A DNA stretch of 64,000 nt from Candidatus Hydrogenedentota bacterium (GCA_019637335.1 JAHBVV010000001.1:377440-441439), one strand, 5' to 3'. Shown: positions 3,301 to 64,000, counted from the stretch's first letter. A program made the numbers and translations. The notes: generated by a model from the sequence alone, not told the origin.

Positions 3301-3506
3301 ACGCTGCCAGCCGGGTCATCGGCGGCGCGGCGCTTGCCGCGTGGGAGCCGATCCCGGCATGGTCTGAACGATCGGTCGCGGCCCCGGCCAGCCCCGCATG
3401 CGAGGCGGTCCGCTTCGCCATCGAGACCAATCATCCGGACGCGCGCGCCGCCCTGGACGATCCCGTGATCATCGCCATCCCTCCTCCGCCCGGCGGCGCG
3501 GATTAG
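339..3506 (+). CDS. Polytopic membrane protein with an O-antigen ligase/polymerase (Wzy_C-like) domain fused to a long C-terminal TPR/Sel1-like repeat domain
   Basis: About 12 predicted TM helices in the N-terminal 480 aa. The TRTRGSWLGLAVALALIAV motif is typical of the O-antigen ligase family. The C-terminal ~550 aa is rich in helical Ala/Leu/Arg repeats. The ORF track gives a 1055-aa frame. Confidence 0.6.
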   Translation: MALTEFVQMAGITHRRGAAVGAATLAAAGLAAVLAIALDLPWTQAGGLPLLVLGLYLVAFHTHAALCFIAFAITPFCVVQAEVLGVTLNLPEVLILALAAKEGVRLLRDGFTLPEALPHRTLAAFVAASVIAIATGFHHQNGAVRTLQDFRQFVEFLLLFGLVLRCVSGRDEAIRIAFCFALGGSLIALHGIMQQVAPLGVSPTQMSSDLRLYGAVRSASFYGPTPLGGLMVLAIGPAAGVLLASKRRSIQWIMAACILLCLVTIVLTRTRGSWLGLAVALALIAVSIRPSGKTLFAAAGAGIVLAFLLGPVVLQRLYTLADPVQDVSLMARAQYYAAAAHIGRAHPVLGLGWGCFYDIDTILNAERYVPVTMEEVAAREAEEAAERRAFSDPGEDAPPEPAEVEEATVHSAYLQLFVKTGLLGVLTFLAIIVVWVERIWRGRNTRFQSDSGHALFIGITASVAGYLFHSTFENFFQWPVMAQSFWLLFGLSFMLAPRPEGVRPGYGVPLAFVCSASAVFLLFMAACLRMETLHPGHYERNVTNALDEGDLEKAIRIARRATEVGPREPMPYTVHARLLFLRGDDEAALAELDKAFGPKIYPNKPRFEYTTARYYFAPARLLLGRHHAERDDWDEARQQFELARAYADLRADEFAEFHPLLYQAYASAGNWFRALDFGAPDADELAGLDGASLVNLARAAETRGAWALLERVASAIQTRDGLAEQAGYFLGRARLAQGKPAEAVEPLKEAADAGLPDAHYHLGRALAETGQTEAAVAAFRATPPHDIHHAVALAEAWGLLPENDAAAAELRAGLMEAVRRMRQLPPAPGEDAATPALLAYVLPGGGMLPERFPMLLLWGDSSGALDRLTGVSVARDADGCTVQLEGTGLLLEVRTVENLAVWAAIEHAGETDEIPAGWIDTAREWFALTDRPAGAVTREPDGNLAMDVNGTAWIYSAPARIPEGALCLVSARLRDPAGAARYGLQQIDAASRVIGGAALAAWEPIPAWSERSVAAPASPACEAVRFAIETNHPDARAALDDPVIIAIPPPPGGAD

Positions 3507-14400: not shown

Positions 14401-14677
14401 GCGGCGGGCAGGCCTCGGGACGGCAGGGACGACTCCGCCGCCCTGGACAGCCGGGACGGCTATCCTACATTTTCGCGAATTGTTGCTTCCGCAGGCTGCC
14501 GTGTTGTGAATTCTGGTAGTGCGGAAAAGGTGCCATTGGGCAGGGGGCTGGGGTATGATCGGTGGCCTGGGGGATGTGGGCGGGATCGCCCCTCGGCGGG
14601 CGGCAGGCCCCGATCCGTACGTTTTTCTGGTTCTTGACGTGTGTCTATTTGCCGTAGCAGTACATTCAGGAGGTTTC

Positions 14678-15670
14678 ATGAAAAAGATTACTACCATCGC
14701 GGTGTCCGGACTTGGTTTTTGCCTGTTGTTTCCCGCCGCGGCGTCGGATTCGTTGCCGGCGCCGGCGAACCAGGTCATCGACTACCACACGGACATCGCG
14801 CCGCTGCTTCAGGAGCACTGCATCGATTGCCACGGTGCGGAGAAGCAGAAGTCGGACTACCGTCTGGACAACCGGGCGGACGCGATTGGCAGCGGTTCGG
14901 AGGGGGGCGCGATTGCGGTGGGGGACAGCGCGGGCAGCCTGCTGGTGCGGCTGATCACGGGGACGGACGACAACTTTGACATCATGCCGCCGAAGGGCGA
15001 CCCGTTGACGGCGGAGCAGGTGGGGCTGATTCGCGCGTGGATCGATCAGGGCGCGGTTTGGGAGGGTTCGGGCGACTCGGCGGCGGCTCCGATGGAGGAG
15101 CGCAACGACCGGGCGGCCTTTTCGGTGGCTGGTGGCGCTTGGGTTATCGAGGCGACGGCGCAGAAGGGGCCTCTGGCGGTGTGGGAAGCGGTTTCGGAGC
15201 AGGGGCCGGCGGGAGAGGCGTGCGTTGCGCTGACGAATCCGAACCACACGAGCGACGGGACGTTTAATCTGCTGTGGAACCCGGAGGCGGGGTTCAGGAA
15301 CGGCCGTATTGAGACGAGCCTGAAGGCCGTGTCCGGGGAGACGGATCAGGGCGGCGGGCTTATCTGGCGGGCGCGCGACAAGAACAACCACTACATCGCG
15401 CGGTATAACCCGGCCGAGAAGAACCTGCGGTTGTACGAATTGGTGGACGGGAAGCGGACGCAGCTGGCGAGCGCGGAAGTGGAGAAGCCGGAAGGTTCGT
15501 GGGCGGCGCTGGCGGTGGAGCACCAGGACAACCACATCACGGTGAGCCTGGATGGCAAGGTGCTGCTGGAGCACGATTCCAACACCTTCGGAGAAGCCGG
15601 GGGCGTCGGGCTGTGGACCAAGGCCGACGCGGCGACGGTGTTTACGCAGCCGGTTGTGCGGGCGGACTGA
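14678..15670 (+). CDS. Secreted Planctomycete-cytochrome-c (PSCyt1) domain protein with a C-terminal LamG/concanavalin-like domain
   Basis: AGGAGG lies 8 nt upstream of the ATG. Signal peptide MKKITTIAVSGLGFCLLFPAAA. Heme motif HCIDCHG. The C-terminal region looks like a beta-sandwich. Confidence 0.6.
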   Translation: MKKITTIAVSGLGFCLLFPAAASDSLPAPANQVIDYHTDIAPLLQEHCIDCHGAEKQKSDYRLDNRADAIGSGSEGGAIAVGDSAGSLLVRLITGTDDNFDIMPPKGDPLTAEQVGLIRAWIDQGAVWEGSGDSAAAPMEERNDRAAFSVAGGAWVIEATAQKGPLAVWEAVSEQGPAGEACVALTNPNHTSDGTFNLLWNPEAGFRNGRIETSLKAVSGETDQGGGLIWRARDKNNHYIARYNPAEKNLRLYELVDGKRTQLASAEVEKPEGSWAALAVEHQDNHITVSLDGKVLLEHDSNTFGEAGGVGLWTKADAATVFTQPVVRAD

Positions 15671-18626: not shown

Positions 18627-21600
18627 TGGGCGGCGGCCCCGCGGGAGAAGATCGCGCCCTGGGCGAGGAACTCGCGCGGCTGGTTCAAACGCTGAGCGAG
18701 GCGCAGGCCCGCATTGTGGAGCTTGCGGGCGGCGAGCTGGACGGTGTGCTGGACGCGGCGGGCGCGCTGCACCTGCTTCCGGGTGCGCAGCGGCAGTTGC
18801 GGGAGAGCGAGCGCGCGGAGCGCGAATTCGCCGAGCAGCGGGCGGCGATCTTGAACGCGCTTCCCGCGCACATCGCGCTGCTGGACGCCGAGGGGCGCAT
18901 TATTGCGGTAAACCAATCCTGGAACCGATTTGCCGTGGCCAACGTACTGGCGGACGAGAATTTCTGCGTTGGGAAGAATTACCTTGAGGTATGCGAAGCG
19001 GCGCGGGGCGACTGCGCGGAGGAGGCGGCGGAGGCGGCGGCGGGGATCCGGGCGGTGCTTGCGGGGGACCTGGCGGAGTTTGCGCTGGAGTACCCGTGCC
19101 ATTCGCCGGATCAGAAGCGCTGGTTCCGCCTTATGGTGACGCCGATCCATCCGGGGGATCGGGCGGGCGTGGTGGTGATGCATGTGGACATCACGACGCG
19201 CAAGATGGCCGAGGAGGAATTGCGCGAGAGCGAGCGGCACTACCGGGAGTTGTTTGAGAGCAACCCGCAGCCGATGTGGGTTTTTGATCTCGACTCGCTT
19301 TGCTTCCTGGCCGTCAACGACGCCGCGATCGGGCATTACGGATATGCGCGGGACGAATTCCTGGCCATGACAATCGCGGATATTCGACCGGAGGAGGATG
19401 TGCCCGCATTGCGGGAAGTAGTTGAGACCGTCGGAAACGGTTTGAGCCGTGTCGGGATCTGGCGGCACCGCCTTCGGGACGGTCGGACGATCCTGGCGGA
19501 GGTTTCGGCGCACTCGCTCGTATTCGATGGGCGGCGGGCGGCGATGGTGCTGGCGATCGATATGACCGAGCGGATCCGGACGGAGGAGGCGCTTCGGGAA
19601 CGCGAGGCGTTGTTACGCCAGAGCGAGTCCATGCTGCGCATGGCCTCGTCGCTCAGCCGCCTGGGGGCCTGGGCGGTTGATCTGCCGGAATATAAACTAA
19701 CCTGGTCCGACGAGGTATGTGACATCCACGAAGTCCCCCGTGGCTACCAGGCACGGCTCGAGGAAGCGATCGACTTCTACGCGCCCGAGTACCACGAGGC
19801 AATCAGCCGTGCCTTCGTCCGCTGCGCGGAAACCGGGGCGCCCTTCGACCTCGAACTGGAGATCATCACCGCACGGGGCAACCGCGTATGGATCCGCACC
19901 ATCGGGGAGGCCGTGCGCGACGAGAACGGCCGCATTCAGCGCGTCCAGGGCGCGTTTCAGGACATTTCCGCCCGCAAGGCCGAAGAGCAGCGCAAGCGAA
20001 GCCTGGAAGAGCGCCTCGCGCGGACGCTGGAGAGCATCTCGGACGCATTTTTCGCGCTGGACCGGGAATGGCGCTTTACCTACTTGAACCAGGAGGCCGA
20101 GCGCGTATTGGAGCGTCCGCGGGAGGACTTGCTTGGCCGGGTCGTCTGGGACGAATTTCCCGAGGCCGTGGGAATGCGTTTTGAGCGGGAATACCGGCGC
20201 GCCGTGGATGAGCGGGTCTCCGTCTCTTTTGAAGAGTACTACCCGCCCCTCGAATGCTGGTTCAATGTTCGGGCGCACCCCTATGACGGCGGCCTTGCGG
20301 TGTACTTTGGCGACATTACGGAGGTGAAGGTCGCTCGGGAGCGGATCGAATTGGCGGAGCGGCGTTTCCGGGAGCTCGTGGCGCATGTTCACGATATTTT
20401 TTATGTTTACGAGCCGGACAGCGATGCGCTGCTTTACGTGAGCCCGGCGTTTGAGGACGTTTGGGGGGTTCCGTGCGCGCGGGCCTACGAGGCGCCCCGG
20501 GAGACGTATCTTGCGGCGATTCACGAGGATGATCGCGCTTTTGTGGAGGAAGTTTTTCCTAAGCAGATGCGGGGCGAGGCGCCCGAGGTGGAGTTTCGGA
20601 TCCGCCGGCCCGATGGCGATGTGCGCTGGATCCAGGAGTTTACGTACCCGGTGTATGGCGAGGGGGGCGCCATTGAGCGGGTAGTGGGGACGATGCGCGA
20701 CATCACGGAGCGCAAGCGCGCGGAACTTGATTTGCAGACGAGCGAGGAGCGGTTTCGGTTGCTTTCGCGGGCGACGAACGACGCCATCTGGGATTGGAAC
20801 CTGCTGACCAACGCGTTGTGGTGGAACGAAGGTTTCGAGGTGCTATTCGGGTTCAGCCGCGACGAAGTGGAGTCGACGATTGAATCGTGGACGAGCCGGA
20901 TCCACCCGGACGACCGGGACGCGATTGTAGGGCAGGTGGATAACGTGATTGCGGGCGCGGACGACTATTGGGACGGCGAGTACCGGTTTCTCCGAAAGGA
21001 TGGCAGTTACGCGCATGTGCTGGACCGGGGGTATATCATCCGGGATGATTCCGGACAGGGCGTTCGGATGATCGGCGGCATCACGGATCTTACGGAGCGG
21101 AAGGAGGCGGAACTGCGGCTTGCCGAACAGGCGGCGCTGCTGGACGAGGCGAGCGACGCGATTCTGGTGCGGGATTTGCACAACCGGGTGCTGTTCTGGA
21201 ACCGGCGTGCGGAGGAAATGTACGGCTGGTTCGAAGAAGAGGTGCTCGGGCGGAATGTCGGGGAGATTCTCGACAGCGATCCCGCGCTGCTTGAAGCGGC
21301 TACGGAGGCGGTGTTGCGGGATGGGGAATGGAGCGGGGAAGTTGAGCATAGGACAAAGGGGGGCAAAACGATCACCGTGCTTGCGCGGTGGACGCTGCTG
21401 CGGAATCCGGACGGGTCGCCGCGGTCGATCCTGGCGCTGAACGCGGACATCACGGAGCGGAAGCGGATGGAGGCACAGTTTCTGCGTAGCCAGCGGATGG
21501 AGAGCATCGGCACGCTGGCGGGCGGGATCGCGCACGATCTGAACAATATTCTGGCTCCCATTCTCATGTCGATCGAGATGTTGAAGGAGCAGGCGAGCGA

Positions 21601-53192: not shown

Positions 53193-54746
53193 TCAGCGTT
53201 TTCGGGCGCGGCGGGTGAGGCGTCCGATGAGGGCGAGGTCTTCGGAGCGGAGGAGGCGGCAGGCGGCGGGGTAGGTCAGGAGGCCGGCGAGTACGGGGAT
53301 GAGAACGCGGGCAAGTTCGGCTCCGTGGGCGGTTGCGGGCCAGGCGTTTGCGGTTGCATTGTGGGTGAGGAAGACGGCGCAGCCCATGGCGGTGGAGGCC
53401 AACAGGATTTTGATCAGGCCGCGGGCGAAATCGGGGGTGAGCAGGTTGCCGTAGCGGCGGCAGAGTAGCAGGTAGAGGCCGGTAGCGTTGGCGGCGTAGG
53501 AGATGGTGGTGGCGAGGGCGAGGCCCTGGTAGCCCATGGGTCCGACGAGCGCGAGGTTGAGGGCGATGTTGAGCCCCATGCTCAGGGAGGCGACGATGAC
53601 GGGGGTTGCGGTATTGTGCACGGCGTAGAAGCCCTGAACGCCGACCTTGACCCAGGAGAAGAAGAGGAGGCCCCAAGCGAGGTAGAAGAGGGCGTTTGCG
53701 GCGTGCCGGGCTTCTTCGGGGGAGAAGGCGCCGCCTTCGTGGGCGAAGAGCAACTGCATGATCGGCTCGCGAAGTATCAGGAGGCCGGCCAGGGCGGGCA
53801 TGACGAGAAACGCGGACTGCCGGAAGCCGTGGGCGAGGGTGGCGCGGATTTCGCCATAGTCCTCGCGGGCTCCGGCCGCGGAAATGGACGGCAGGATGGC
53901 GACGGCGACGGCGAGCCCGAATACGGACAGGGGGAGCTGCACGAGGCGGTTTGCGTAGTAGAGGTACGAGACTGCTTCCAGTTTGAAGGCGAAGAAGGCG
54001 TCGACGACTTTATTCACCTCGCCCGTGGCCTGTCCGAGGACGATGGGGACGAGCAGCAGCATGGCCTTGCGGACACCGGGGTGCCTTAACTCGAGCGAGG
54101 GCAGGCCGAAGCCGGCGTGGCGTTTCATGGCGACGAGCAGTACGGCGGCCTGGGCGATGCCGCCGAGCCAGACGCCGGCGACCAGGGCCCAGACGGGGTC
54201 GGGAAAGTAGTCGCTGGCGAGGAGACATGCGGCTATCAGGGCGACATTGAGCAGTGCGGGCGACCAGGAGGCCGTGCTGTATCGTTGCATGACGAATAGC
54301 GGGCCCATCGCGAAGACACCGGCTCCGATGAGGAAGAAATACGGCATGAGCCAGGGCGTCACGGCCAGGGCCAGCCCCAGGTGGTCGTCGCCGGGCATGG
54401 CGGTTCCGGTGAAGGGTTGGAGGAGGCGCAGGGCCGCGGGAATGAAGGGGACGAGGAGCACACCCGCGAGGGTCAGCAGCGCGAAGAGCAGCAGGGTGGC
54501 GCCGAAACAGGCGCGCGCGACGCGGCGGAAGGCGTCGTCGCCCTCGGTTTCGCGGGTGCGGGAGAAGAGCGGCACGTAGGCGGCGTTGACGGCGCCCTCG
54601 CCGAGCATGTCGCGCAGCATATTGGGGAAGCGGAAGGCGAAGAGGAATACCTCGCGCGAGACGAAGGGGATCGTGTCGGCGATCACGATGTCCCGCGCGA
54701 GTCCGAGCAGGCGGCTGATGAGGGTGCCGCCCGCGAACACGGCCAT
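53193..54746 (-). CDS. murJ: Lipid II flippase MurJ (MviN)
   Basis: N-terminus MAVFAGGTLISRLLGLARDIVIADT...FRFPNMLRDMLGEGAVNAAYVPLF matches MurJ. About 14 TM helices. The long upstream ORF extension (Arg/Pro-rich) was rejected. Confidence 0.8.
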   Translation of the reverse strand: MAVFAGGTLISRLLGLARDIVIADTIPFVSREVFLFAFRFPNMLRDMLGEGAVNAAYVPLFSRTRETEGDDAFRRVARACFGATLLLFALLTLAGVLLVPFIPAALRLLQPFTGTAMPGDDHLGLALAVTPWLMPYFFLIGAGVFAMGPLFVMQRYSTASWSPALLNVALIAACLLASDYFPDPVWALVAGVWLGGIAQAAVLLVAMKRHAGFGLPSLELRHPGVRKAMLLLVPIVLGQATGEVNKVVDAFFAFKLEAVSYLYYANRLVQLPLSVFGLAVAVAILPSISAAGAREDYGEIRATLAHGFRQSAFLVMPALAGLLILREPIMQLLFAHEGGAFSPEEARHAANALFYLAWGLLFFSWVKVGVQGFYAVHNTATPVIVASLSMGLNIALNLALVGPMGYQGLALATTISYAANATGLYLLLCRRYGNLLTPDFARGLIKILLASTAMGCAVFLTHNATANAWPATAHGAELARVLIPVLAGLLTYPAACRLLRSEDLALIGRLTRRARKR

Positions 54747-54775
54747 GAAGCGGGTGAGGCTTCTTCCCGGCTTGC

Positions 54776-56368
54776 TCACGGGCTTTTTTCGGGCGCCGGT
54801 TCGGGCGCGTTGGCGGGTGCGCTGGTCCCGCGCTTTCCGGCGAGGAGGATCGCGACGCCGGCGAGGGCGAGGATGGGAACGATGCGACCGAACCAGTCCA
54901 CGGAACCGGGCAGGAGCATGGCGGCGGGAGGCGGTACTGGCATGGCGGCGGCGCGGCGTTGGAGCATGGCGTCCGCGGGCGCCGGTTTGCCCTCGCGCCA
55001 GGTGACGTAGCCCTGTCTTCCGACGAAGCCATCGATGACGTCGATTCGTCCGTAGGGGTCGATGACGGCGGAAACGCCGGTGTTTGCGCATTGGACGAGC
55101 GGGAGCCGGTTCTCGATCGCGCGAAAGCGGGCAATTTCCAATTCCTGGCCCAGGATGTTGCTCTGTCCGAACCAGGCGAGGTTGGTGATTACGACGAGGA
55201 AGTCGGCTCCGAGGGCGCGGCATTCGGAGGCTTGCGGGGCGAAGAGGACTTCGAAGCAGATCAGGGGCCCGAAGCGGCGTCCGCCAGCTTCCATGACCAC
55301 CTGTTCCGCGCCCGCCGAGAGGCCGCCCTGCGCGCCGAAGGCTCGCGCGAAGGAGAGGCGCTCCTCGAAGGGGATGTACTCTCCGAAGGGGGCGAGGTGG
55401 ACTTTGTCGTAGGTTTCGGTGGCGCCATCAGGCCGGACGAGGACGCTGCTGTTGTAGGCGGCGCCGCTGGCGTTGTCGCGGCGCACGGCTCCGGTGAAGA
55501 GGGGGGTGTCTGTGGAGGCGGCAAAGGACTGGAGCTGTTCCAGCACGCGGGGCACGCGGAAATCGCTCATGACGAGGGCCTCGGGCCACACGAAGAGCTG
55601 GGTTGGCTCCGCGCTGGCCACCGCATGGGACTGGACCACGGCCATCTCCAGCATTTCCTCCTGGAAATCGGGGTCCCATTTCATGTGCTGCGGGTAATTG
55701 CTCTGGTAGAGTCCGACCATGTAGGGGGGATCGGCGGATTCGGGCGCGCGGTAGAGGGCGAGGCCGATGAGGTGCGCGAGGAGGACTGTGGCCAGGGCGC
55801 GGGCGGCGGGTATCCAGCGCTGGTCCGGGGCGAGGATTGCCTGGGCGAGGGAGGCGTTGACGCTGGCCAGTATGCCGGAGAGCAGGATCACGCCGCCCAG
55901 CGAGGCGAGTTGGGCGAACCAGGCGTCGGGGCCCTGGCTGTAGCCCAGGGCGGCCCAGCAGAATCCGGTGAAGGCGCGGGCCTGGACCCATTCCATGGTG
56001 ATCCAGAGCGCGGCGAAGAGGAGGGCGGCGCGGCCGCCGGGCCAGCGGCGGTGCAGGCGGCTCCAGAGGGCTCCGAGTGCGGCCCAGAATGCGGCGAGGA
56101 CGAGGCAGAGGCCCTGCTGGCCGAGAATGGCCCAGCCGCCCGCCCAGAAGATGTTTGCGTTGAGCCATTGGAGCGTGATGGAGTAGAAGATCCAGCCGGC
56201 GGCGAGGAACTGGAACGCGGCCTCGCGGGGCGCGCACCGGGCGGCGCGCACGAGGAGGGGTACGAGCGCGACCCACGCCAGGGGGTACCAGTGGAAGGTC
56301 GGAAAGGCCCACGCCAGGAGCACGCCGGATAGTAGCGCCCAGGCATAGCGCCGCAGAAAAACGAGCAT
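54776..56368 (-). CDS. lnt: Apolipoprotein N-acyltransferase
   Basis: N-terminal polytopic domain plus a CN-hydrolase domain (GPLICFEVLFAPQ, NLAWFGQS). 530 aa. Confidence 0.85.
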   Translation of the reverse strand: MLVFLRRYAWALLSGVLLAWAFPTFHWYPLAWVALVPLLVRAARCAPREAAFQFLAAGWIFYSITLQWLNANIFWAGGWAILGQQGLCLVLAAFWAALGALWSRLHRRWPGGRAALLFAALWITMEWVQARAFTGFCWAALGYSQGPDAWFAQLASLGGVILLSGILASVNASLAQAILAPDQRWIPAARALATVLLAHLIGLALYRAPESADPPYMVGLYQSNYPQHMKWDPDFQEEMLEMAVVQSHAVASAEPTQLFVWPEALVMSDFRVPRVLEQLQSFAASTDTPLFTGAVRRDNASGAAYNSSVLVRPDGATETYDKVHLAPFGEYIPFEERLSFARAFGAQGGLSAGAEQVVMEAGGRRFGPLICFEVLFAPQASECRALGADFLVVITNLAWFGQSNILGQELEIARFRAIENRLPLVQCANTGVSAVIDPYGRIDVIDGFVGRQGYVTWREGKPAPADAMLQRRAAAMPVPPPAAMLLPGSVDWFGRIVPILALAGVAILLAGKRGTSAPANAPEPAPEKSP

Positions 56369-56472: not shown

Positions 56473-57573
56473 CTAGAAGTTCATTGCGTCCACTTCCGCG
56501 GAGATGCGGCGCTCGTGATCCCAGGTTCCGTTCTTCCAGAATTCGAGCGCGCGCTGGCTGTCCGGCGTGAGGTTTCGCAGATCGACGACGGTGGGCGTCA
56601 CGAAAATCAGCAGGGTGGTCTGTTGCGATTCGGAGACGCGGCTGCGGAACGGGAAACCGATAACGGGCAGGTCGCCGATAATGGGGACGCGGCGCTCCGA
56701 CTGGCGGACGAGGTTTGACGTGAGTCCGCCGGTGACGAGGGTTTGCCCGTCTGGAACGTAGACGGTGCCGGTTTGCGAGCGCTGGGAGAACACGGGCAGG
56801 TCGATTCCGCGGACGTTGTCGATCCGGAGGGTATCGGTCACGTCGAGCTTTTCGATCTGGAGCTTGACCATGTTGTTTGGCTGGATGGTTGGGGTCAGGG
56901 CCAGGTTCACGCCGATGGTCTTGAATTCCACCTTGAGCTGGGGAATGGCATTGTTCTTGTACTCGACGCTCTGGAAGGGGACTTCGCCGCCCGCGTTGAT
57001 TTCGGCGCGCATGCCGTTGATGACGAGGAGTTCGGGGCGGGAAACGGTATCCGAATCGCGCCCTCCCTCGACACCGCGAAAGACCGCGTCGATCGTGCCG
57101 TGGTCGGAATCGATAAGCGTGGCCGTCAGCCCGCCGCCTTCGCGCGTCTGAATGCCGTTCACGTTGCTGCTGTCTTCGTCGGGGCGCAAGGGCGTGCCGA
57201 CACCGGGTACCGGGAGGGTGACGCGATTGAAGTCGCCGACGGTGTCGACAACGTTGGTCGTAACCTGCTGGAGCGATCCGCTCTGTTCGACGCCCCGGAG
57301 AATCCGGGTATAGTTCAGATTGGCGCCGAGTTCGCGGAGGCCGCGTTCATTGGTCTCGACAATGCGGACCTTGATCTGTACCTGGCGAATGTCCTCCGGC
57401 CCGGTGGGGCCTTCGGGCGGGGCTTCGGCGGGCGGGGCCTCCTCGGCGGCCTCGGCGGGCGGGGCTTCTTCGGCGGGCGGGGCTTCCGCGGGGGCCTCAT
57501 CCTGGCCATGCGACAGACCGGGCATCGCCGCGAAGAGAAGAATCAGTCCGGCAATCCAGCAATGGCGTCTCAT
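56473..57573 (-). CDS. Secretin-family outer-membrane protein (short GspD/PilQ-like)
   Basis: Signal peptide present. The C-terminal secretin domain contains GQTLVTGGL...PIIGDLPVIGFPF...TLLIFVTPTV. The start overlaps the stop of the upstream secretin-like gene by 4 nt. Confidence 0.7.
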   Translation of the reverse strand: MRRHCWIAGLILLFAAMPGLSHGQDEAPAEAPPAEEAPPAEAAEEAPPAEAPPEGPTGPEDIRQVQIKVRIVETNERGLRELGANLNYTRILRGVEQSGSLQQVTTNVVDTVGDFNRVTLPVPGVGTPLRPDEDSSNVNGIQTREGGGLTATLIDSDHGTIDAVFRGVEGGRDSDTVSRPELLVINGMRAEINAGGEVPFQSVEYKNNAIPQLKVEFKTIGVNLALTPTIQPNNMVKLQIEKLDVTDTLRIDNVRGIDLPVFSQRSQTGTVYVPDGQTLVTGGLTSNLVRQSERRVPIIGDLPVIGFPFRSRVSESQQTTLLIFVTPTVVDLRNLTPDSQRALEFWKNGTWDHERRISAEVDAMNF

Positions 57574-58823
57574 GGCTTCGCCTCATCCACGGCGGGCGGG
57601 GTTTCCGCCGCGGGCTCCTCATCGGCGGGTGGAGCCGCCTCCGAATCGCCCACTTCGGGCGCTTCCTCGACGAGCGGGGGCGCACTCGGCCTATCGCCGT
57701 CGGCGGGAATCATGGACTCGTCGCCGGGAATGCCGCGTGTAATTTCGGACTGGAAGCTTTGGCCGGTGACTTCCTCGGCCAGGCCTTGCGGGATATCGGC
57801 CAGGCCACGGATAACTCCTCCGACGACCTCCGTCGGCCGCATGAGGATGCTCCGCCTGTCGACGTTGTCCACGCCGATGTCGAATATCGGGGGCGGGACG
57901 TCCGCCTTGATGAGGAACGCGAGTTCCCGGCGGGAACGGGAGAACTGGTTGTTCCCGATGCTGCTGCTGATGGGAACGGGTTCGACGGCGAATGGCACGA
58001 TGCGCTGCACGAGGCCGTTCAGGACGCGGTCTCCCTGCGCCAGCCAGGGCAGGGTGGCGAGGTCCTTGTCTTCGGTATTGCGGTAGAGTCCGCCGAGCAT
58101 GAGCACCTGGCCGTGACGCACCCAGACATCCGTCATGATCTGCCGGCTGACAAACTCCGGCACGCGTATCTCGTTGGCGGGCCGCTCGAAGAGATTGCCC
58201 GTGCCGGCGAGGGAGTCGTCCAGCGCGACGGTGATGCGCTGCCCCTCTTCCTTCACCGAGGCGTTCAGATTAAGCTGGATGTAGGTGTCATCCCGGGTTT
58301 CCGGGTTTCCGTCGTCGTCGACGATGCGGGTCGCTTTTACATCCAGGCTCACGCCGGTCGGTTTGAAATTCGTGATCTGTACGGCGGTCGAGCCGACGAC
58401 GACGGTGTCCTCGTAGGGGACATCCTGGGTGGTCTTGATGGTGGTGGGGGTTTCCTCGCCCACGGGTACCAGGGCGGTGGGCTCGGAGAGGATGAAGGCG
58501 CGGCCTTCGTCGACGAGGGCCTGCAAGACGATCTCGATATCGCCGTACTTGGTCACGAGGCGATCGAGGAAGACGGTGATGCCGGCGGTGGTGCGGTTCG
58601 GAAAGGTGATATCGGCGGTATTGATGGAACCATTTCCGCTGGATACCCGCCCGTAGGGCCGGGGTTCGGCGCGCTGCTGGAAATAGGCGCTGAGCCCGGT
58701 TTCCGTGCTCTTGCTGGTCTGGAATTCGATCACCTTCACCGAGACCTGGACCTGATCCTGGCCCGGGGCCGCGAGCGGGGCCGCCAGCACCAGGGCGGCG
58801 GCTATGGCCGTATAAACTCGCAT
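57570..58823 (-). CDS. Second secretin-like protein, a paralogous short secretin
   Basis: Signal peptide MRVYTAIAAALVLAAPLAAP. Secretin-like C-terminus at GQVLMLGGLYRN...LPWLAQGDRVLNGL...LAFLIKADV. ATG at 58821-58823 was chosen over TTG 58877. Confidence 0.55.
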   Translation of the reverse strand: MRVYTAIAAALVLAAPLAAPGQDQVQVSVKVIEFQTSKSTETGLSAYFQQRAEPRPYGRVSSGNGSINTADITFPNRTTAGITVFLDRLVTKYGDIEIVLQALVDEGRAFILSEPTALVPVGEETPTTIKTTQDVPYEDTVVVGSTAVQITNFKPTGVSLDVKATRIVDDDGNPETRDDTYIQLNLNASVKEEGQRITVALDDSLAGTGNLFERPANEIRVPEFVSRQIMTDVWVRHGQVLMLGGLYRNTEDKDLATLPWLAQGDRVLNGLVQRIVPFAVEPVPISSSIGNNQFSRSRRELAFLIKADVPPPIFDIGVDNVDRRSILMRPTEVVGGVIRGLADIPQGLAEEVTGQSFQSEITRGIPGDESMIPADGDRPSAPPLVEEAPEVGDSEAAPPADEEPAAETPPAVDEAKP

Positions 58824-58830
58824 AGAGACC

Positions 58831-59844
58831 TTATCGGAGGTACGTGCCGACGCATTCGTAGCGGTGCACGTTCTCAATGTTGTCGAAATTGGTGAAACGC
58901 AGGCTGAATGCGCGCGTATCTCCGGGGTTCAATCGGCCGATAGCGTAGCGCTGGCTGTCGTAGACGCGCCCCGCGAAGCCATATATGGTAACGATGACGG
59001 CGACGTCTCGCAGGGGGTAGTCCGCACGGTTCACCACCTGGCCGGAAACGTTATAGTGCTGGTTGGAGTAATCGTACTGGTCGGCGCGGTAGCGGCCGCT
59101 TCTCCAGGATTGTGTGTTGAAAATCGCCAGCGGCTCCGCGTCCGCGTAGCGCCGCTCCACCTCGTCGGGAGTGAGCACGACATATTCGCCGTCCGGTCCG
59201 AGTTCCATGCGCTGGCGGATGACCGCGTCGTCTTTCAGCGATGGCCAGATGGAAAGTATTCTCCGGTAGAGGAATGCGGCCTTGTTGTAGTCGGTATTAT
59301 TCCAGTAAACGTTGGCCAGTTCCAAATGGGCGGCGAGCTCCTGCGGTTCGGCGACGCCATCGAAGCTTGCCACGCGGGCTTCCAGTGCGGCCGTGTCGAC
59401 GGCCTGCGCCAGTGTTGCGGCCTCGATGCCCGCCACGTATTCGCGCGTGAGGCCGGCGTATTTTCCTTCGGGGGCCAGTTCCAGATACTTCCTGAAACTC
59501 CGATCGGCGTTGTAGAGGCCGTTAATCTTGTAATAGGTCAGCCCGAGGAAGTACCACCCTTCTTTTCCCGCGTCCGTGTCCGGGTATTGTGCGACGAGCG
59601 AGGTGAGGCGGGGTATGACGACGGAATATTCCCCGGCGCGCATCATACGCTGGGCTTCGGCGAGGTCCTGCCGGGCGCTTGCGCTGATGAGTGCGGCGTT
59701 GTTTGACGCAAATGGGCCGCTATTGTCGCGAATCAGCCTGGGTTGCTGGGTGTTCTGGCAACCCGCCAACAGCGCAAGCAGGAGGAACCCGCTCAGCGCG
59801 CATGCCCCCCCTTGGAACAGCCTGGGCATAGACAACACCCGCAT
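58831..59844 (-). CDS. TPR-repeat lipoprotein, a possible pilotin or assembly factor for the secretins
   Basis: Lipobox LLAGC. TPR-like Tyr/Leu/Ala repeats. Co-oriented and tightly spaced with the secretin genes. Confidence 0.5.
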   Translation of the reverse strand: MRVLSMPRLFQGGACALSGFLLLALLAGCQNTQQPRLIRDNSGPFASNNAALISASARQDLAEAQRMMRAGEYSVVIPRLTSLVAQYPDTDAGKEGWYFLGLTYYKINGLYNADRSFRKYLELAPEGKYAGLTREYVAGIEAATLAQAVDTAALEARVASFDGVAEPQELAAHLELANVYWNNTDYNKAAFLYRRILSIWPSLKDDAVIRQRMELGPDGEYVVLTPDEVERRYADAEPLAIFNTQSWRSGRYRADQYDYSNQHYNVSGQVVNRADYPLRDVAVIVTIYGFAGRVYDSQRYAIGRLNPGDTRAFSLRFTNFDNIENVHRYECVGTYLR

Positions 59845-59874
59845 GGATTGAAAGGACCGGTGGTGGTGAAGGGA

Positions 59875-60273
59875 CTACTTGAGCTTTTCGAGCACCAGCT
59901 CGGTGACGTCTTCAGCCTGAATCGCCGGCTCCAGGGATTCGAGGTAGCCGTCCGCCACGATCAGGTCAAAAGCCGTTTCTTCGCCCACTTCCTTAATGAG
60001 TTTCTGGGCCCGCTCGCTGGCCTTGCTGATCAGGATCCAGTATTTGGCGGAACCGCTGACAATTTTTTTCTTCTTGATGGAGGAATACTCCGGGGTCGCC
60101 TTCACAATGTCCTGATAGTTGACGCGGGCCGGTTTTTCGAAGGACTCGGGGGCCCCATAGAAGATTTTTTGCACGTCCTGCTTGTCGGCGGGAATGGAGA
60201 GGCCGGAGACGGGCATGGCCACGCTGCACAGGGCGACGGCGAGGAATAGAATGGTGTAGTTTCGAAGTCCCAT
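59875..60273 (-). CDS. OmpH/Skp-like periplasmic chaperone, small
   Basis: Signal peptide MGLRNYTILFLAVALCSVAMP. 132 aa, Lys-rich and helical. C-terminus ...AFDLIVADGYLE resembles Skp. Confidence 0.4.
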   Translation of the reverse strand: MGLRNYTILFLAVALCSVAMPVSGLSIPADKQDVQKIFYGAPESFEKPARVNYQDIVKATPEYSSIKKKKIVSGSAKYWILISKASERAQKLIKEVGEETAFDLIVADGYLESLEPAIQAEDVTELVLEKLK

Positions 60274-60589
60274 TTTGGAACGCCTTTTTCTACCCGGAGC
60301 GAATTGGGAATCACTCCTCGGGAGTTTTGTTCGTTCAAAAACGTACGAATTGTACGCTTGGATTCGCATAGGTGTCAATTAATTACCGGCGCCCCGGCCC
60401 GTTCGGATTCCCACCGATCCGCCTCCATCACAGCGGGTTTTGCTCCGGTCTTGAGTCTATAATGCCGTCGGTTCCCGAAAAGTTCCCGGCAACGGGGCAG
60501 TCGCGGCAATTTTTTTCCGCGGGAGGGCTACCCGATGGGCGCGTGTGCTCTCCCGGGTACTATACCATGTGGTTGGTGGCGCGTTACGG

Positions 60590-61450
60590 GTCGGGGGAAC
60601 CTCGAAGGGACGTGATAGAAATGATCACCACGAAGGGCGCGAAGGACAAGAAGGGAAACAGAGAAGAGTTTTAACCGCAGAGAACGCAGAGAGCGCATTC
60701 TTAACCACGAATGAACACCAATGCACACGAATGCACGAATACATCGGGAGCAGCCGCGGGCGGCGATCAAGAATTGCGCCCACGGATTGCACTGATGACA
60801 CGGATAGAAAATGATTTCGGTCGTTGGGGCCTGCCGGCGGCTGCGTGCGATTTCCGAGGCAGCCTGTTCGGATTGTTCAGTATCAGGAGTGTAGAGGCGT
60901 TGATCGGGTGGAGGGCGGCTTTTTCTCGTTTGGTTCGAGCGTCGCTGCAATCCGTGTCATCGGTGTAATCCGTGGGCAATAAGAAATACCGTAACACGTC
61001 AGCCATACGAAGCAGCCCCAATTCATTCTTGTCATGCCGAGATACTACGACGAGAGCGCGCCAGGCTGGGAGCGCAGGCGTCCCCGCCTGCAATGCACCG
61101 GAGGTGCATGGCGTGTTTGCAGTATCGGCGCCTTTGAGCGGGGAGACGACTGGACCCGGATCACAGCCGTCTATCCGATTCGCGCCTTCGGCGCGATGCG
61201 GGCGGGCCGCCCGCGCTCCCATTGGTCCGCACTTCCGTTGTGGCGCAGGTTTGTGTCGTCGAGAAATCAAGCCAACTTCACTCCGCTAAAGTGTTACGAA
61301 ATACCGACTACGAAATGCACGGCCCGGCCCGGAGATTCCCACTGGGGTTTCTGCTTTGCAAATACCTTTACACCAGATGGTTATGGGGCTCCTGGTCGCA
61401 CGAACCTTCAGAAAAAACAGGAAGGTGACGGGTAGTAGCATGAAGAGCGC
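60590..61450. repeat. Modular word-repeat element, locus 5, containing a family-A hairpin element at 61030-61270
   Basis: ...atgatcaccacgaagggcgcgaaggacaagaag...ttaaccgcagagaacgcagagagcgcattcttaaccacgaatgaacaccaatgcacacgaatgcac... The family-A copy that follows is atactacgacgag...ggcgcgatgcgggcgggccgcccgcgctcccattggtccgcacttccgttg. Confidence 0.75.
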
Positions 61451-61620
61451 AAAAAACAAAGAGATTATTGGGGTGACGGCGGCCCGGACCGCCTGGAGGG
61501 TCTTAATTTGAACGCCGTGGTCCGTTGATTCATTGCATCGATCCAGACCGGATGGGTACTATAGCGGGGCAGAAACCGCGCGTGGGCCGTTGGCTGCGTG
61601 CGCTCCGAAGGAAGGCTCGC

Positions 61621-64000
61621 ATGAAATCTCCCTTGATGAACTGGCTTGGTCTTGTCTTTTGCGCCGTGTTGCTTATGGCGCCGGCGGGGCGGGCGATTGC
61701 CGAGGCGGACGGATCTGATCAGGCGTGGCTCTGGGTTGTCCCGGGCGCGAACGCAGGCGGCCGCCACCTCGAATTGGCGGTTGACTGGGAGGAGACCGGT
61801 GCTGGCGGGGCGGAGATGCGTTTCACGTGTGTGCTCCAGAGTGACTTTTCCTTTTTGCGGGCGCAGGTCTACCTGAATGTGGTGGATGCGCTTGGGGCTC
61901 CCGTGGTATCGGGGGCATTGCCGCTGGACATCGACGCGGGCTCGAACACGTGCCAGATTACGCTGGATGCGGCGGCGCTTCCGGTTGGGGAGTATCGGGG
62001 GACAATCACGGTCGGCCACACCCTGCTTCTGGACACGCCGTCGCAGGCGTTCATATTGCGCAAGGTCAGCGCGGACCGGATGCTTTCGGATCTGGAGCAG
62101 TATGAGGAGCAGGCGTCGGAATTGAACCGGTCTCTGGGGGCGATGGAGGCGGCGGGATCCGCGCAGCCGTACCTGCGCCTGAAAACGAATATATTGACGG
62201 ATGTGCTGCGTATGGCCCGCGGCGACGCCGCCGGCGAGGCGTGGGAGTCGCTTTCAAACCGGCTCCGTTATGCGAAGGATCGGATCGATGCGGTTCGGGC
62301 GGGAATCGTCTTCGGGACGACGCAGCCCGAGCAGTCGCCGGCGATTCCCCCGGTCAATCCTGGAGAGATCGGCGTATCGCGGGGCGGCTTTACTTCGGGT
62401 GGCAGGCCGCTGTTTCTTCTTGGGGGCGCGCTGCCGGCGCGGGATCCGGAGATGCTGGCGCAGTTGCGGCGGTATCAGTTCAACGCGGCGACGCTGGTCC
62501 TGGGGGCGGGGGATGTTCGGGAAGGGGCGGGGCCGGGAACGCTCCAGCCGTTTTTTGAATCGGCGGTGGATCACAATATCGCGGTTGCGGTACAGCTTGC
62601 GCCGCACGACATACCGCCGGGGTTGCTTGAACAGCACCCGGAGTTGCGGCGCGGCGGCCAGACGAACCTGGCCGAGCCCGCGGCGCGCGCATACTGGGAG
62701 GGGTATGTTCGCGCGGCCGGCCCGATGCTTTCCGGGCGCCCGATGTTGTTTGGGGTGAGCCTGTCGGACGATGCGTATTTCCAATTCGATGGCGAGGATG
62801 TGAAGACGGGGTTCCTGGATTTTCTTCGGGCCAATTACTCGGACCGGCTGACGTTGAACCGTTCGTGGCGGGCGCACCTGGCCAGCCTGGACGATATCAC
62901 GCCGTGGAGCACGAATCCTTACGACACGTACCAGCAACACCGCCCGTACCAGTTTGACTGGCAGACCTATCACCAGGCCCTGGGGCACAGCTACTTTCGC
63001 TGGTCGCGCGATCTGGTGGCGTCGGCCCTGCCTGGCACGCCGCTGATGGCGACGCTGCCGGATAGTGTGTTTGCGGCGGGGGAAACCCGGCACGGTGTCA
63101 ACCGGGAGCGCCTTTCCGAGTTGCTGGATTATTCCGGCTGTTCGGCGCGATCGGTCCGGGCGAACGAGGTGTTCGCCCTGGATTATCCCCGGGAGTCGGC
63201 GTATTACACATTGCTGAAGTCGTTCCAGGCGGAGCGGCCTGTGTTCAACCTGCGGCTGGAGCTGGACGCGGGCGCGAACACGACGGGTGAACTTGCGTAC
63301 CGGTATGTGCACAGCGCGCTGTGGGAAGGGGCGATGTCCGGGCTGGGCGGGGCGACGGTTCCGATGGATTCGCTGGTATTTCAGGATCCGTATATGGTTG
63401 AAGCGCTGGCGACGGCGTCGCTCGATCTGAACCGGCTGGCTCCGATTGTGCATGCGTTTCAGACCGCGCCGGCGGACGTGGGTATACTTTTCAGCTATGC
63501 CTCGAAGGTGTTCGACGATGGGGACCCGCACTTGCGATCGGCGCTGAACGCTTACGAAGGGACCTCGTTTGGCGGGTACAAGGTGCGATTCATTTCGGAG
63601 GACCAGTGCGAGGCGGGGATCCTGGACGCGCTCAAGATTCTTGTGATTCCGGATACGCCGGCGCTGGGCGAGGCGGCGTTCCGCGAGATCAGCGAATACG
63701 TGGAGGCGGGGGGCACGGTGGCCCGGACGGGGGCGCCGATCCCGTATAACGAGCGGGGCTACTCGCGCGGGGACCTGATCCGGAACACGGGCAATACGGT
63801 GCTTGTGCGGGGGTTGAACCTGCCGACGGAGTACCTGCACGCGATGGACGCCGCGACGGTGCTTGGGGTGTTGCCGCAGATACCGCGGCCCATCACGCGC
63901 CAGGGGTATCCGGTTGAGGGGTTGAAGTCGCGGTATGTGGAGATTGACGGGGAGGGCTATCTTTATCTGTTGAATCTGCGCAAGGAGCCGGCGTACTGCA
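61621..64000 (+). CDS. Secreted hypothetical protein, 5' portion (extends beyond the window); possibly a TIM-barrel glycoside-hydrolase-like protein
   Basis: Open frame from ATG 61621 to the window end, at least 793 aa, absent from the supplied ORF track because it is truncated. Signal peptide MKSPLMNWLGLVFCAVLLMAPAGRAIA. Protein-like composition with Trp/Tyr-rich segments. Confidence 0.5.
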   Translation, partial: MKSPLMNWLGLVFCAVLLMAPAGRAIAEADGSDQAWLWVVPGANAGGRHLELAVDWEETGAGGAEMRFTCVLQSDFSFLRAQVYLNVVDALGAPVVSGALPLDIDAGSNTCQITLDAAALPVGEYRGTITVGHTLLLDTPSQAFILRKVSADRMLSDLEQYEEQASELNRSLGAMEAAGSAQPYLRLKTNILTDVLRMARGDAAGEAWESLSNRLRYAKDRIDAVRAGIVFGTTQPEQSPAIPPVNPGEIGVSRGGFTSGGRPLFLLGGALPARDPEMLAQLRRYQFNAATLVLGAGDVREGAGPGTLQPFFESAVDHNIAVAVQLAPHDIPPGLLEQHPELRRGGQTNLAEPAARAYWEGYVRAAGPMLSGRPMLFGVSLSDDAYFQFDGEDVKTGFLDFLRANYSDRLTLNRSWRAHLASLDDITPWSTNPYDTYQQHRPYQFDWQTYHQALGHSYFRWSRDLVASALPGTPLMATLPDSVFAAGETRHGVNRERLSELLDYSGCSARSVRANEVFALDYPRESAYYTLLKSFQAERPVFNLRLELDAGANTTGELAYRYVHSALWEGAMSGLGGATVPMDSLVFQDPYMVEALATASLDLNRLAPIVHAFQTAPADVGILFSYASKVFDDGDPHLRSALNAYEGTSFGGYKVRFISEDQCEAGILDALKILVIPDTPALGEAAFREISEYVEAGGTVARTGAPIPYNERGYSRGDLIRNTGNTVLVRGLNLPTEYLHAMDAATVLGVLPQIPRPITRQGYPVEGLKSRYVEIDGEGYLYLLNLRKEPAYC

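Follow-up and report, generated by a model that had tools for sequence, protein, structure and literature searches.

A stretch of 64,000 nucleotides from a Candidatus Hydrogenedentota bacterium, referred to below as the window, was analysed with regard to four tightly packed open reading frames (ORFs) on its minus strand at positions 56473-60273. In the direction of transcription these encode a small Skp-like protein, a lipoprotein with tetratricopeptide repeats (TPRs) and two secretins, here named A and B (Table 1). Secretins are the large gated pores of type II (T2SS) and type III secretion systems, type IV pili (T4P), Tad pili and filamentous phages. The nearest homologues all come from the same candidate phylum, and an exact-sequence look-up of secretin B returned no record. 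A preliminary description of the locus had reported two co-oriented secretins of 417 and 366 aa joined by an ATGA overlap and preceded by a lipobox TPR protein and a Skp-like protein. All four genes were recovered in this arrangement, the Skp likeness of the small protein lying below the family cut-off. The junction between the secretin genes reads ...GAGGCGAAGCCATGAGACGC..., in which the TGA stop codon of A (57572-57570) overlaps the ATG start codon of B (57573-57571) to form the four-base ATGA; a GAGG motif is located 7 nt upstream of the ATG of B. The stop codon of the TPR gene and the ATG of secretin A are separated by 7 nt, and the longest possible ORF of A begins at a TTG codon at 58877 and comprises 435 aa. 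Rfam and tRNA scans yielded nothing near the locus. A single promoter would drive all genes from the small gene to secretin B.

Table 1. Features of the secretin locus and its downstream neighbours (window coordinates)
Feature	Position	Strand	Properties
Sigma-70-like promoter	60349..60378	-	TTGACA-18-TACAAT, 11/12 matches, ~75 nt upstream of the ATG of the small gene; consensus match only
Mini-Skp-like periplasmic protein	59875..60273	-	132 aa, signal peptide, ~110 aa mature
TPR lipoprotein	58831..59844	-	337 aa, lipobox LLAGC; TPRs at ~residues 55-205, FxLYD beta-domain at residues 265-324
Secretin A	57570..58823	-	417 aa from ATG; signal peptide, one N3-like module, divergent core with two insertions, C-terminal motif, acidic Pro/Ala-rich tail
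Secretin B	56473..57573	-	366 aa; signal peptide, Pro/Ala/Glu-rich linker, one N3-like module, canonical secretin core, two C-terminal helices
Lnt (apolipoprotein N-acyltransferase)	54776..56368	-	104 nt downstream of secretin B; LNT_N and CN_hydrolase Pfam matches
MurJ (lipid II flippase)	53193..54743	-	Pfam match; neighbour outside the conserved core

Both A and B are assigned to the secretins by Pfam and by fold searches. The Pfam Secretin model (PF00263, cut-off 27.5 bits) was matched by B with 126.3 bits and by A with 57.0 bits, the match of A spanning model positions 1-138 of 169. AlphaFold2 monomer models were of modest overall confidence, with mean predicted local distance difference test (pLDDT) scores of 62 and 60, and the long barrel hairpins reached values of 70-90; each model shows six long strands that follow a beta-alpha-beta-beta N3-like start. 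Foldseek comparison with the PDB placed secretins at ranks 1-30 for A (probability 0.97-1.00) and at ranks 1-40 for B (probability 1.00), which in each case comprises every hit above the first non-secretin; the global TM-scores were low (0.2-0.38), as is expected of monomer models. The possibility raised in the preliminary description that one of the two proteins might lack a real secretin fold was thus not borne out. The curated models for GspD, PilQ, MshL and SctC were matched by A and B in their C-terminal part only and at no more than about a third of their cut-offs. The GspD model TIGR02517 (cut-off 351.35 bits) gave 120.7 bits for B and 46.7 bits for A over positions 336-591 of 600 only, and the PilQ model TIGR02515 (cut-off 284.35 bits) gave 130.6 and 46.7 bits, respectively. 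Because the GspD and PilQ models are matched in their C-terminal regions only, domains N0-N2 are judged absent from A and B, and Pfam searches identified no AMIN, N0 or PF13629 domain in either protein (PF13629 at E<=0.1). Each protein is therefore predicted to consist of one N3-like module and the secretin core only. The earlier observation that long N0-N3 regions are lacking was upheld in this minimal form, although the shortness in itself is not unusual, as RcpA, pIV and HofQ are secretins of ~400-430 aa. With one N-domain per protein, and hence a single periplasmic ring, the pore is too short to cross the periplasm unaided, and the earlier suggestion of an envelope-spanning channel is not supported in that form.

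The two secretins differ strongly from each other. The best PDB sequence matches of B were GspD/XcpQ (E=2e-30), followed by PilQ, RcpA (6e-21) and pIV (1.9e-15), whereas the divergence of A is much greater, its best profile match in the PDB reaching only 5e-7. Direct BLASTP comparison of A with B gave E=0.009, a barely recognisable kinship, and alignment of the A-family and B-family profiles with hhalign gave a probability of 97.9% and 22% identity over 208 columns. A recent tandem duplication is ruled out by an identity of only ~22%; judged from their sequences, A and B are ancient, strongly diverged paralogues, each of which is well conserved. Relative to B, secretin A contains two insertions, an altered C-terminal loop in place of the VPxLGDxPxLG (VPxLGDxPxLGxLF) motif, an additional conserved C-terminal motif and the acidic Pro/Ala-rich tail; B carries its Pro/Ala/Glu-rich linker ahead of the N3 module. 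One A-type secretin (P0373, 576 aa) has a C-terminal extension of ~200 aa with a repeated '...ALE(V/I)(L/I)(R/K)KLP(D/N)IP...' motif, which is similar to the 'IPQG' motif conserved at the C-terminus of A; these repeats may serve in docking.

The divergence of A raises the question of whether B alone forms the pore and A is a degenerate, secretin-derived accessory that has no part in lining the channel and acts, for instance, as a cap, a periplasmic ring, a scaffold or a template for assembly. The lower scores of A (57 vs 126 bits in Pfam and 5e-7 vs 2e-30 in the PDB comparison), the missing canonical motif, the insertions and the long tail would all fit such a role, and in the T2SS secretin complex of Deinococcus radiodurans (GspD DR_0774 with the lipoprotein belt GspP and the cap GspT) cap and belt are indeed separate subunits (PMC10828601). 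However, no long barrel hairpin is missing from the model of A, which matches secretins only, A-like proteins outside Hydrogenedentota retain the canonical C-terminal motif, and A is conserved as much as B. An accessory role of A is thus considered improbable.

To follow the four genes through the phylum, a genome scan with one genome per species was employed, which yielded 80 loci, each with up to 10 kb of flanking sequence per side; gene presence was counted only where contigs reach far enough. All but a few of the loci are labelled Hydrogenedentota, and the others resemble mislabelled metagenome-assembled genomes (MAGs). Many cassette-bearing MAGs are recorded as 'uncultured Nitrospirales/Nitrospiraceae', 'Eubacteriales' or 'Bathyarchaeia archaeon' (L014, L017, L019-L021, other loci and P0106), and these odd labels are probably taxonomic mislabels. 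Within Hydrogenedentota, secretin B follows A in all 69 loci, the TPR gene is present in 70 of 72 (L071 being a locus from which it is missing) and the small gene lies next to the TPR gene in 67 of 68, so that the co-conservation of the block, which the preliminary description had named as a check, was clearly seen. Lnt is adjacent in 41/63 loci, MurJ in 33/57, and a divergently transcribed secreted protein of ~850 aa was found in 36/44. These counts define the four genes as the conserved core and the Lnt-MurJ pair as frequent synteny only. The stop codon of A and the start codon of B overlap in 68 of 73 loci (43 ATGA, 9 GTGA, 1 TTGA and 15 one-base overlaps). Because the start codon of B sits inside the stop codon of A, it is proposed that the two proteins would be synthesised in a fixed proportion.

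The distribution of the cassette is wider than had been assumed. When the A-family profile was searched against 1.84 billion representative proteins, a tight A family of 28 representatives was obtained at E<=1e-30, followed by a second tier of short secretins of 290-390 aa. The order TPR, A-like, B-like was detected in a Candidatus Sumerlaeota MAG (L092), in the metagenomic loci L088, L090 and L093, in L087, also metagenomic, where the small gene precedes it, and on a 1.28-Mb contig of an unclassified MAG (L094), in which the A/B overlap is again ATGA. Candidatus Calescamantes (L091) encodes a TPR protein, a 71-aa ORF, a mini-Skp and one secretin. The cassette was therefore rejected as a lineage-specific invention, the view taken in the preliminary description. 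In a neighbour-joining tree (no bootstrap), the first genes of these loci cluster with A and the second genes with B of Hydrogenedentota, the single Calescamantes secretin lies near the base of the B side, and long secretins are placed between the A and B clades. The occurrence of TPR-A-B in Sumerlaeota and other lineages together with the tree indicates that the duplication predates the split of Hydrogenedentota and Sumerlaeota. In Calescamantes, with its TPR protein, mini-Skp and single secretin, a one-secretin form of the module persists, which fits duplication followed by subfunctionalisation; the A/B pair would then derive from one short secretin like that encoded there today. Directly after the single Calescamantes secretin, a Wzy_C (O-antigen-ligase-like) protein with faint TPR matches is encoded (L091 7301-8950), and a 1055-aa Wzy_C and TPR protein is also located in the window (339-3506), 53 kb from the cassette.

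The coupling of the two secretin genes extends to their rates of evolution. A mirror-tree test with 31 species that carry all six genes (the block, Lnt and MurJ) gave r=0.93 for the A-B distances and a partial value of 0.86 after the Lnt/MurJ background had been regressed out, compared with 0.44-0.56 for every other pair within the block; the mean divergence is equal (A 0.692, B 0.690). These observations can be accommodated by a scheme in which A and B would be exported by Sec, would each adopt the fold of a secretin subunit, with a single N3 ring module in the periplasm, and would assemble into one pore, most likely as a mixed and possibly alternating ring. This reading draws on the complete long barrel strands in both proteins, on the invariable succession of B after A with its conserved overlap, on the A-B covariation and on the reappearance of the gene order outside the phylum, in Sumerlaeota among other lineages. 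In vitro, variants of one secretin have formed mixed multimers (PMC4604470). A natural ring of two secretin paralogues is not described in the literature searched, and searches for literature on a Hydrogenedentes/Hydrogenedentota secretin or pilus and on a Sumerlaeota T2SS or T4P returned nothing relevant. The gene data suggest, but do not prove, an outer-membrane pore of two different secretin subunits, a type that has not yet been described. The two-paralogue idea of the preliminary description was strengthened by the overlap and the covariation; its heteromeric part is still an inference.

Several points weigh against a mixed ring and the module built around it. To our knowledge, all secretins solved so far are homo-oligomers of one subunit, which gives a mixed ring a low prior probability. 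Gene coupling and covariation would be equally expected from two rings in one machine or from common assembly factors. The species pairs are not independent, so the A-B ranking in the mirror-tree test is informative but without formal significance. The overlap is looser outside Hydrogenedentota, with a gap of 207 nt in L093 and small gaps in L087 and L088 that vary with the start codon chosen. The accessory proteins described below are assigned to Skp and to the pilotins by sub-threshold similarity, and a partner inner-membrane machine was sought near the loci and none was pinned down.

The main rival explanation is that A and B form two separate homo-oligomeric pores, each for a different machine (one perhaps a T2SS-like exporter, the other a type IVa pilus), or stacked or alternative rings, with the TPR lipoprotein and the mini-Skp in common. 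Apart from the homo-oligomeric nature of every characterised secretin, this would account for an A-B difference like that between secretins of different systems (BLASTP E=0.009), for the position of long secretins between the two clades and for the complete barrel topology kept in both proteins. It is less easily reconciled with the fact that A and B occur together in all 69 loci, that the stop-start overlap is conserved, that both proteins evolve at nearly identical and tightly covarying rates and that neither gene lies beside a machine of its own in any of ~85 loci. Two separate pores are therefore regarded as unlikely, though as an explanation to be taken seriously.

The TPR lipoprotein was matched by TPR Pfam models and weakly by YfiO. 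Its C-terminal domain belongs to the FxLYD family (NF038353; 27.7 bits vs a cut-off of 23, residues 265-324), and FxLYD was found in 33 of 33 homologues, with a best value of 1.8e-10. The BamD, YbgF and PilW models all remained below their cut-offs; for BamD/YfiO (TIGR03302, PF13525) 32 bits were obtained vs a required 81.4, over model positions 6-106 of 239 only, and the protein thus falls outside this family. The pilotin models for PilF/PilW/Tgl (TIGR02521, NF033762) gave no match to the protein of the window at E<=0.1, and among the homologues PilW was matched by 21/33 and Tgl by 6/33 (E<=0.01), no better than other TPR models. The small protein resembles the C-terminus of Skp in its sequence, a resemblance that does not amount to demonstrated membership: the Pfam OmpH/Skp model PF03938 was matched with 22.2 bits vs a cut-off of 32.4 at model positions 93-141 of 141, and the Skp chains of the PDB reached only E ~1.2. 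OmpH matches at E<=0.01 were detected in 20 of 34 family members, the best at 9.4e-6. A C-terminal strand and a DIT-x-x-V-L helix motif align with the end of the OmpH model, as in Skp/OmpH (PDB 1SG2, 1U2M). The differences from Skp are the low scores, the lack of a bamA-skp-lpxD context and the size; with ~110 mature residues, the small protein would be a half-size Skp with helical arms roughly half as long.

These similarities could also mean that the two proteins are simply the general BamD and Skp of the lineage, to which the secretins are adjacent by chance. TIGR03302 was matched by 32 of 33 members of the TPR family, the closest PDB matches among natural TPR lipoproteins are BamD-like chains (E ~1e-7 to 1e-8), and the OmpH matches in the small-protein family point in the same direction. 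The distance of both scores from their cut-offs speaks against this explanation, as does the finding that YbgF, PrsT, PilW and MamA were matched about as well as BamD, which marks the signal as generic for TPRs. In addition, the FxLYD domain is foreign to BamD, and the TPR gene stays with the secretins across phyla as all other neighbours change. Of all explanations considered, this one is given the least credence. Instead, the TPR-FxLYD lipoprotein would be sorted to the outer membrane and serve there as a pilotin and/or a peripheral belt of the adjacent secretins, and the mini-Skp-like protein would keep unassembled subunits soluble in the periplasm. The pilotin role is put forward by analogy, as there are known cases of TPR lipoprotein pilotins (RcpA-TadD, PDB 8ODN) and of lipoprotein belts that surround a secretin (D. 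radiodurans GspP, PMC10828601).

A cognate machine was searched for in the window and in the related loci. Pfam searches of 18 large ORFs, a prepilin motif scan and a T2SSE Walker-A scan did not detect T2SS or T4P ATPase, platform or prepilin genes in the window (small ORFs in low-GC gaps were covered by the motif scans only), in agreement with the preliminary description. In the 80 related loci, within ~10 kb, the Walker-A scan detected nothing except one lone PilT-like gene in L002, which is located at 20554-21131, ~10 kb from the cassette and after murC-ftsQ-ftsZ. Homologues of this gene occur in murC-ftsQ-ftsZ-pilT contexts or alone, and no pil cluster was found with them; a PilT-like ATPase follows murC-ftsQ-ftsZ directly in L002, in L084 (7747-8757) and in L085 (1914-2924), with no other pilus genes around. 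Across the window and all loci, the scan for prepilin motifs yielded a single find, a prepilin-leader DUF1559 (SBP_bac_10) protein of a Hydrogenedentota MAG (L071, 5103-6053, minus strand), ~4 kb from the cassette. The DUF1559 family is typical of Planctomycetota and Verrucomicrobiota. Another feature in common with phyla of the PVC type is a Planctomycete cytochrome c domain (PSCyt1) protein encoded in the window (14519-15670, plus strand). With one T2SSE-family ATPase among 80 loci with up to 10 kb of flank, a conventional split locus does not describe the cassette, and a full T2SS or T4P cluster just outside the window is unlikely, the scan of this genome having reached position 64000. The PilT-like ATPases and the DUF1559 prepilin indicate that the phylum possesses type IV filament components, and the pore would serve a T2SS-like or T4P-like machine encoded elsewhere in the genome. 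As N0 is missing, one may speculate that contact with the inner-membrane platform is made by the Pro/Ala-rich linkers in the two secretins.

The same lack of ATPase, platform or pilin genes within ~10 kb in ~85 loci could be taken to indicate a stand-alone outer-membrane channel that works without a type IV filament machine, importing or exporting large substrates or components of the envelope, and that is tied to its envelope-biogenesis neighbours. N0, the usual contact for GspC/PilP-type inner-membrane partners, is missing, lnt, murJ, murC, ftsQ and ftsZ adjoin the cassette in many Hydrogenedentota, and BamD-like and Skp-like genes are part of the same operon. On the other hand, the Lnt-MurJ adjacency is absent in at least one third of the Hydrogenedentota loci, phage pIV is the only secretin known to function independently of a filament or needle machine, and PilT and prepilin genes are present in the phylum. 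Such a channel is held to be very improbable.

Comparison with known systems identified partial likeness to several of them. The Tad secretin RcpA and its TPR lipoprotein pilotin TadD (Pseudomonas aeruginosa, PDB 8ODN) resemble the cassette in combining a short secretin of ~420 aa, with few N-domains, with a TPR lipoprotein of the outer membrane, and RcpA was matched with confidence in both the sequence and the fold searches. However, the Tad system has one secretin gene, which lies inside a tad locus with a CpaF/TadA ATPase; RcpA/CpaC carry an N-terminal PF13629 domain that is not matched in A or B and TadD lacks an FxLYD domain. Secretin B is also nearer to GspD (2e-30) than to RcpA (6e-21), and assignment to the Tad secretins is not supported. 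GspD/PulD/XcpQ of the T2SS (with pilotins PulS/AspS) are the best sequence matches of B over N3 and core and have the double-barrel fold in common with it. These proteins have 650-750 aa with N0-N1-N2-N3 and an S-domain, form homo-15-mers and are encoded in a gsp operon, whereas the cassette lacks N0-N2, reaches one third of the GspD cut-off, contains two paralogues and has no gsp genes nearby, which places it outside the GspD family. Type IVa PilQ with a TPR pilotin (PilF/PilW/Tgl) and the TsaP ring offers another case of a secretin with a TPR lipoprotein, and PilT-like ATPases do occur in the phylum; PilQ contains AMIN and N0 domains and is part of pilMNOPQ, and neither such domains nor such neighbours accompany A and B, so that assignment to the PilQ family is not supported. 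Near the cassette, pil neighbours, gspC-M or gspE-F genes and a CpaF/TadA-type ATPase were looked for and none were found.

The D. radiodurans complex (PMC10828601) comes close to the arrangement proposed here, as it is termed a hetero-oligomer, and has unconventional lipoprotein subunits, one of them with an Ig-like beta fold, that are encoded away from the machine genes; its extra subunits are not secretin paralogues, though, and its secretin ring consists of one protein. Phage pIV (PDB 7OFH) is, like A and B, a minimal secretin (~405-426 aa) without an operon of machine genes of its own and was matched by both proteins. It differs by having N0 and N3 and by being phage-borne, and the cassette lacks N0, is chromosomal, syntenic across the phylum (80 species) and of host-like composition, which sets it apart from pIV. 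Identity as a prophage pIV was ruled out by this phylum-wide chromosomal synteny.

The arrangement of a secretin with a pilotin is known, and the cassette represents a variation of it. Taken as a whole, the block may be a self-contained outer-membrane secretin module: a mixed A/B ring would be assisted by a chaperone and by a lipoprotein acting as pilotin or belt, and the pore would work for a type IV filament machine whose genes lie in another part of the genome. We consider this reading evenly poised between right and wrong. A bolder version, put forward tentatively and falling a little short of an even chance, is that the ring is an obligate hetero-oligomer (for example an alternating, even-numbered barrel) that arose by duplication before the Hydrogenedentota/Sumerlaeota split, is assembled by the dedicated mini-Skp and TPR-FxLYD belt and is the general outer-membrane portal for the type IV filament machines of both phyla. 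If true, the pore would be the first with two different secretin subunits and thus a new architecture. It would provide a natural case of a homomeric barrel turned heteromeric, with the single-secretin relative in Calescamantes available for comparison, and would raise questions on symmetry, gating and the symmetry mismatch with the inner-membrane machine. The main interest lies in this likely heteromeric ring together with the two uncharacterised accessory families that the cassette defines, a half-size Skp-like protein and a TPR-FxLYD lipoprotein, which may shed light on the chaperoning and insertion of secretins in bacteria only distantly related to Proteobacteria. Because public records often list A as 'hypothetical protein', the number of secretins in these phyla is probably underestimated.

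The envelope-biogenesis genes downstream of secretin B had been taken as a functional hint. Lnt is a neighbour that is probably co-transcribed with the cassette but lies outside its conserved core. The idea that the cassette is defined by a functional operon link to Lnt-MurJ was rejected, given their adjacency in only 41/63 and 33/57 loci and the fact that outside the core family no locus has the pair directly downstream (in L094, a MurJ gene is located ~4 kb downstream on the opposite strand); the adjacency is a matter of synteny rather than evidence of function. The longest MurJ ORF of the window (53193-55223, minus strand, 676 aa) has an Arg-rich N-terminal extension of ~150 aa, which shares ~450 nt with the 3' end of lnt. 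Its Pfam match begins at residue 191. This long ORF is probably over-extended, with the true start probably near 54743.

Upstream of the cassette, the divergently transcribed ~850-aa secreted protein (61621-64000, plus strand) runs past the end of the window and has no Pfam match here; its homologue in L001 is recorded as Glyco_hydro_42. The non-coding gap between the cassette and this gene (60380-61620) is unusually long at ~1.24 kb, compared with ~0.5 kb in related loci. It contains several GC-rich hairpin-like repeats and a 28-nt inverted repeat (60778-60805 and 60950-60977, 93% complementary, 144 nt apart). The Rfam scan gave no match in this gap, which could represent a small inserted element or a structured RNA.

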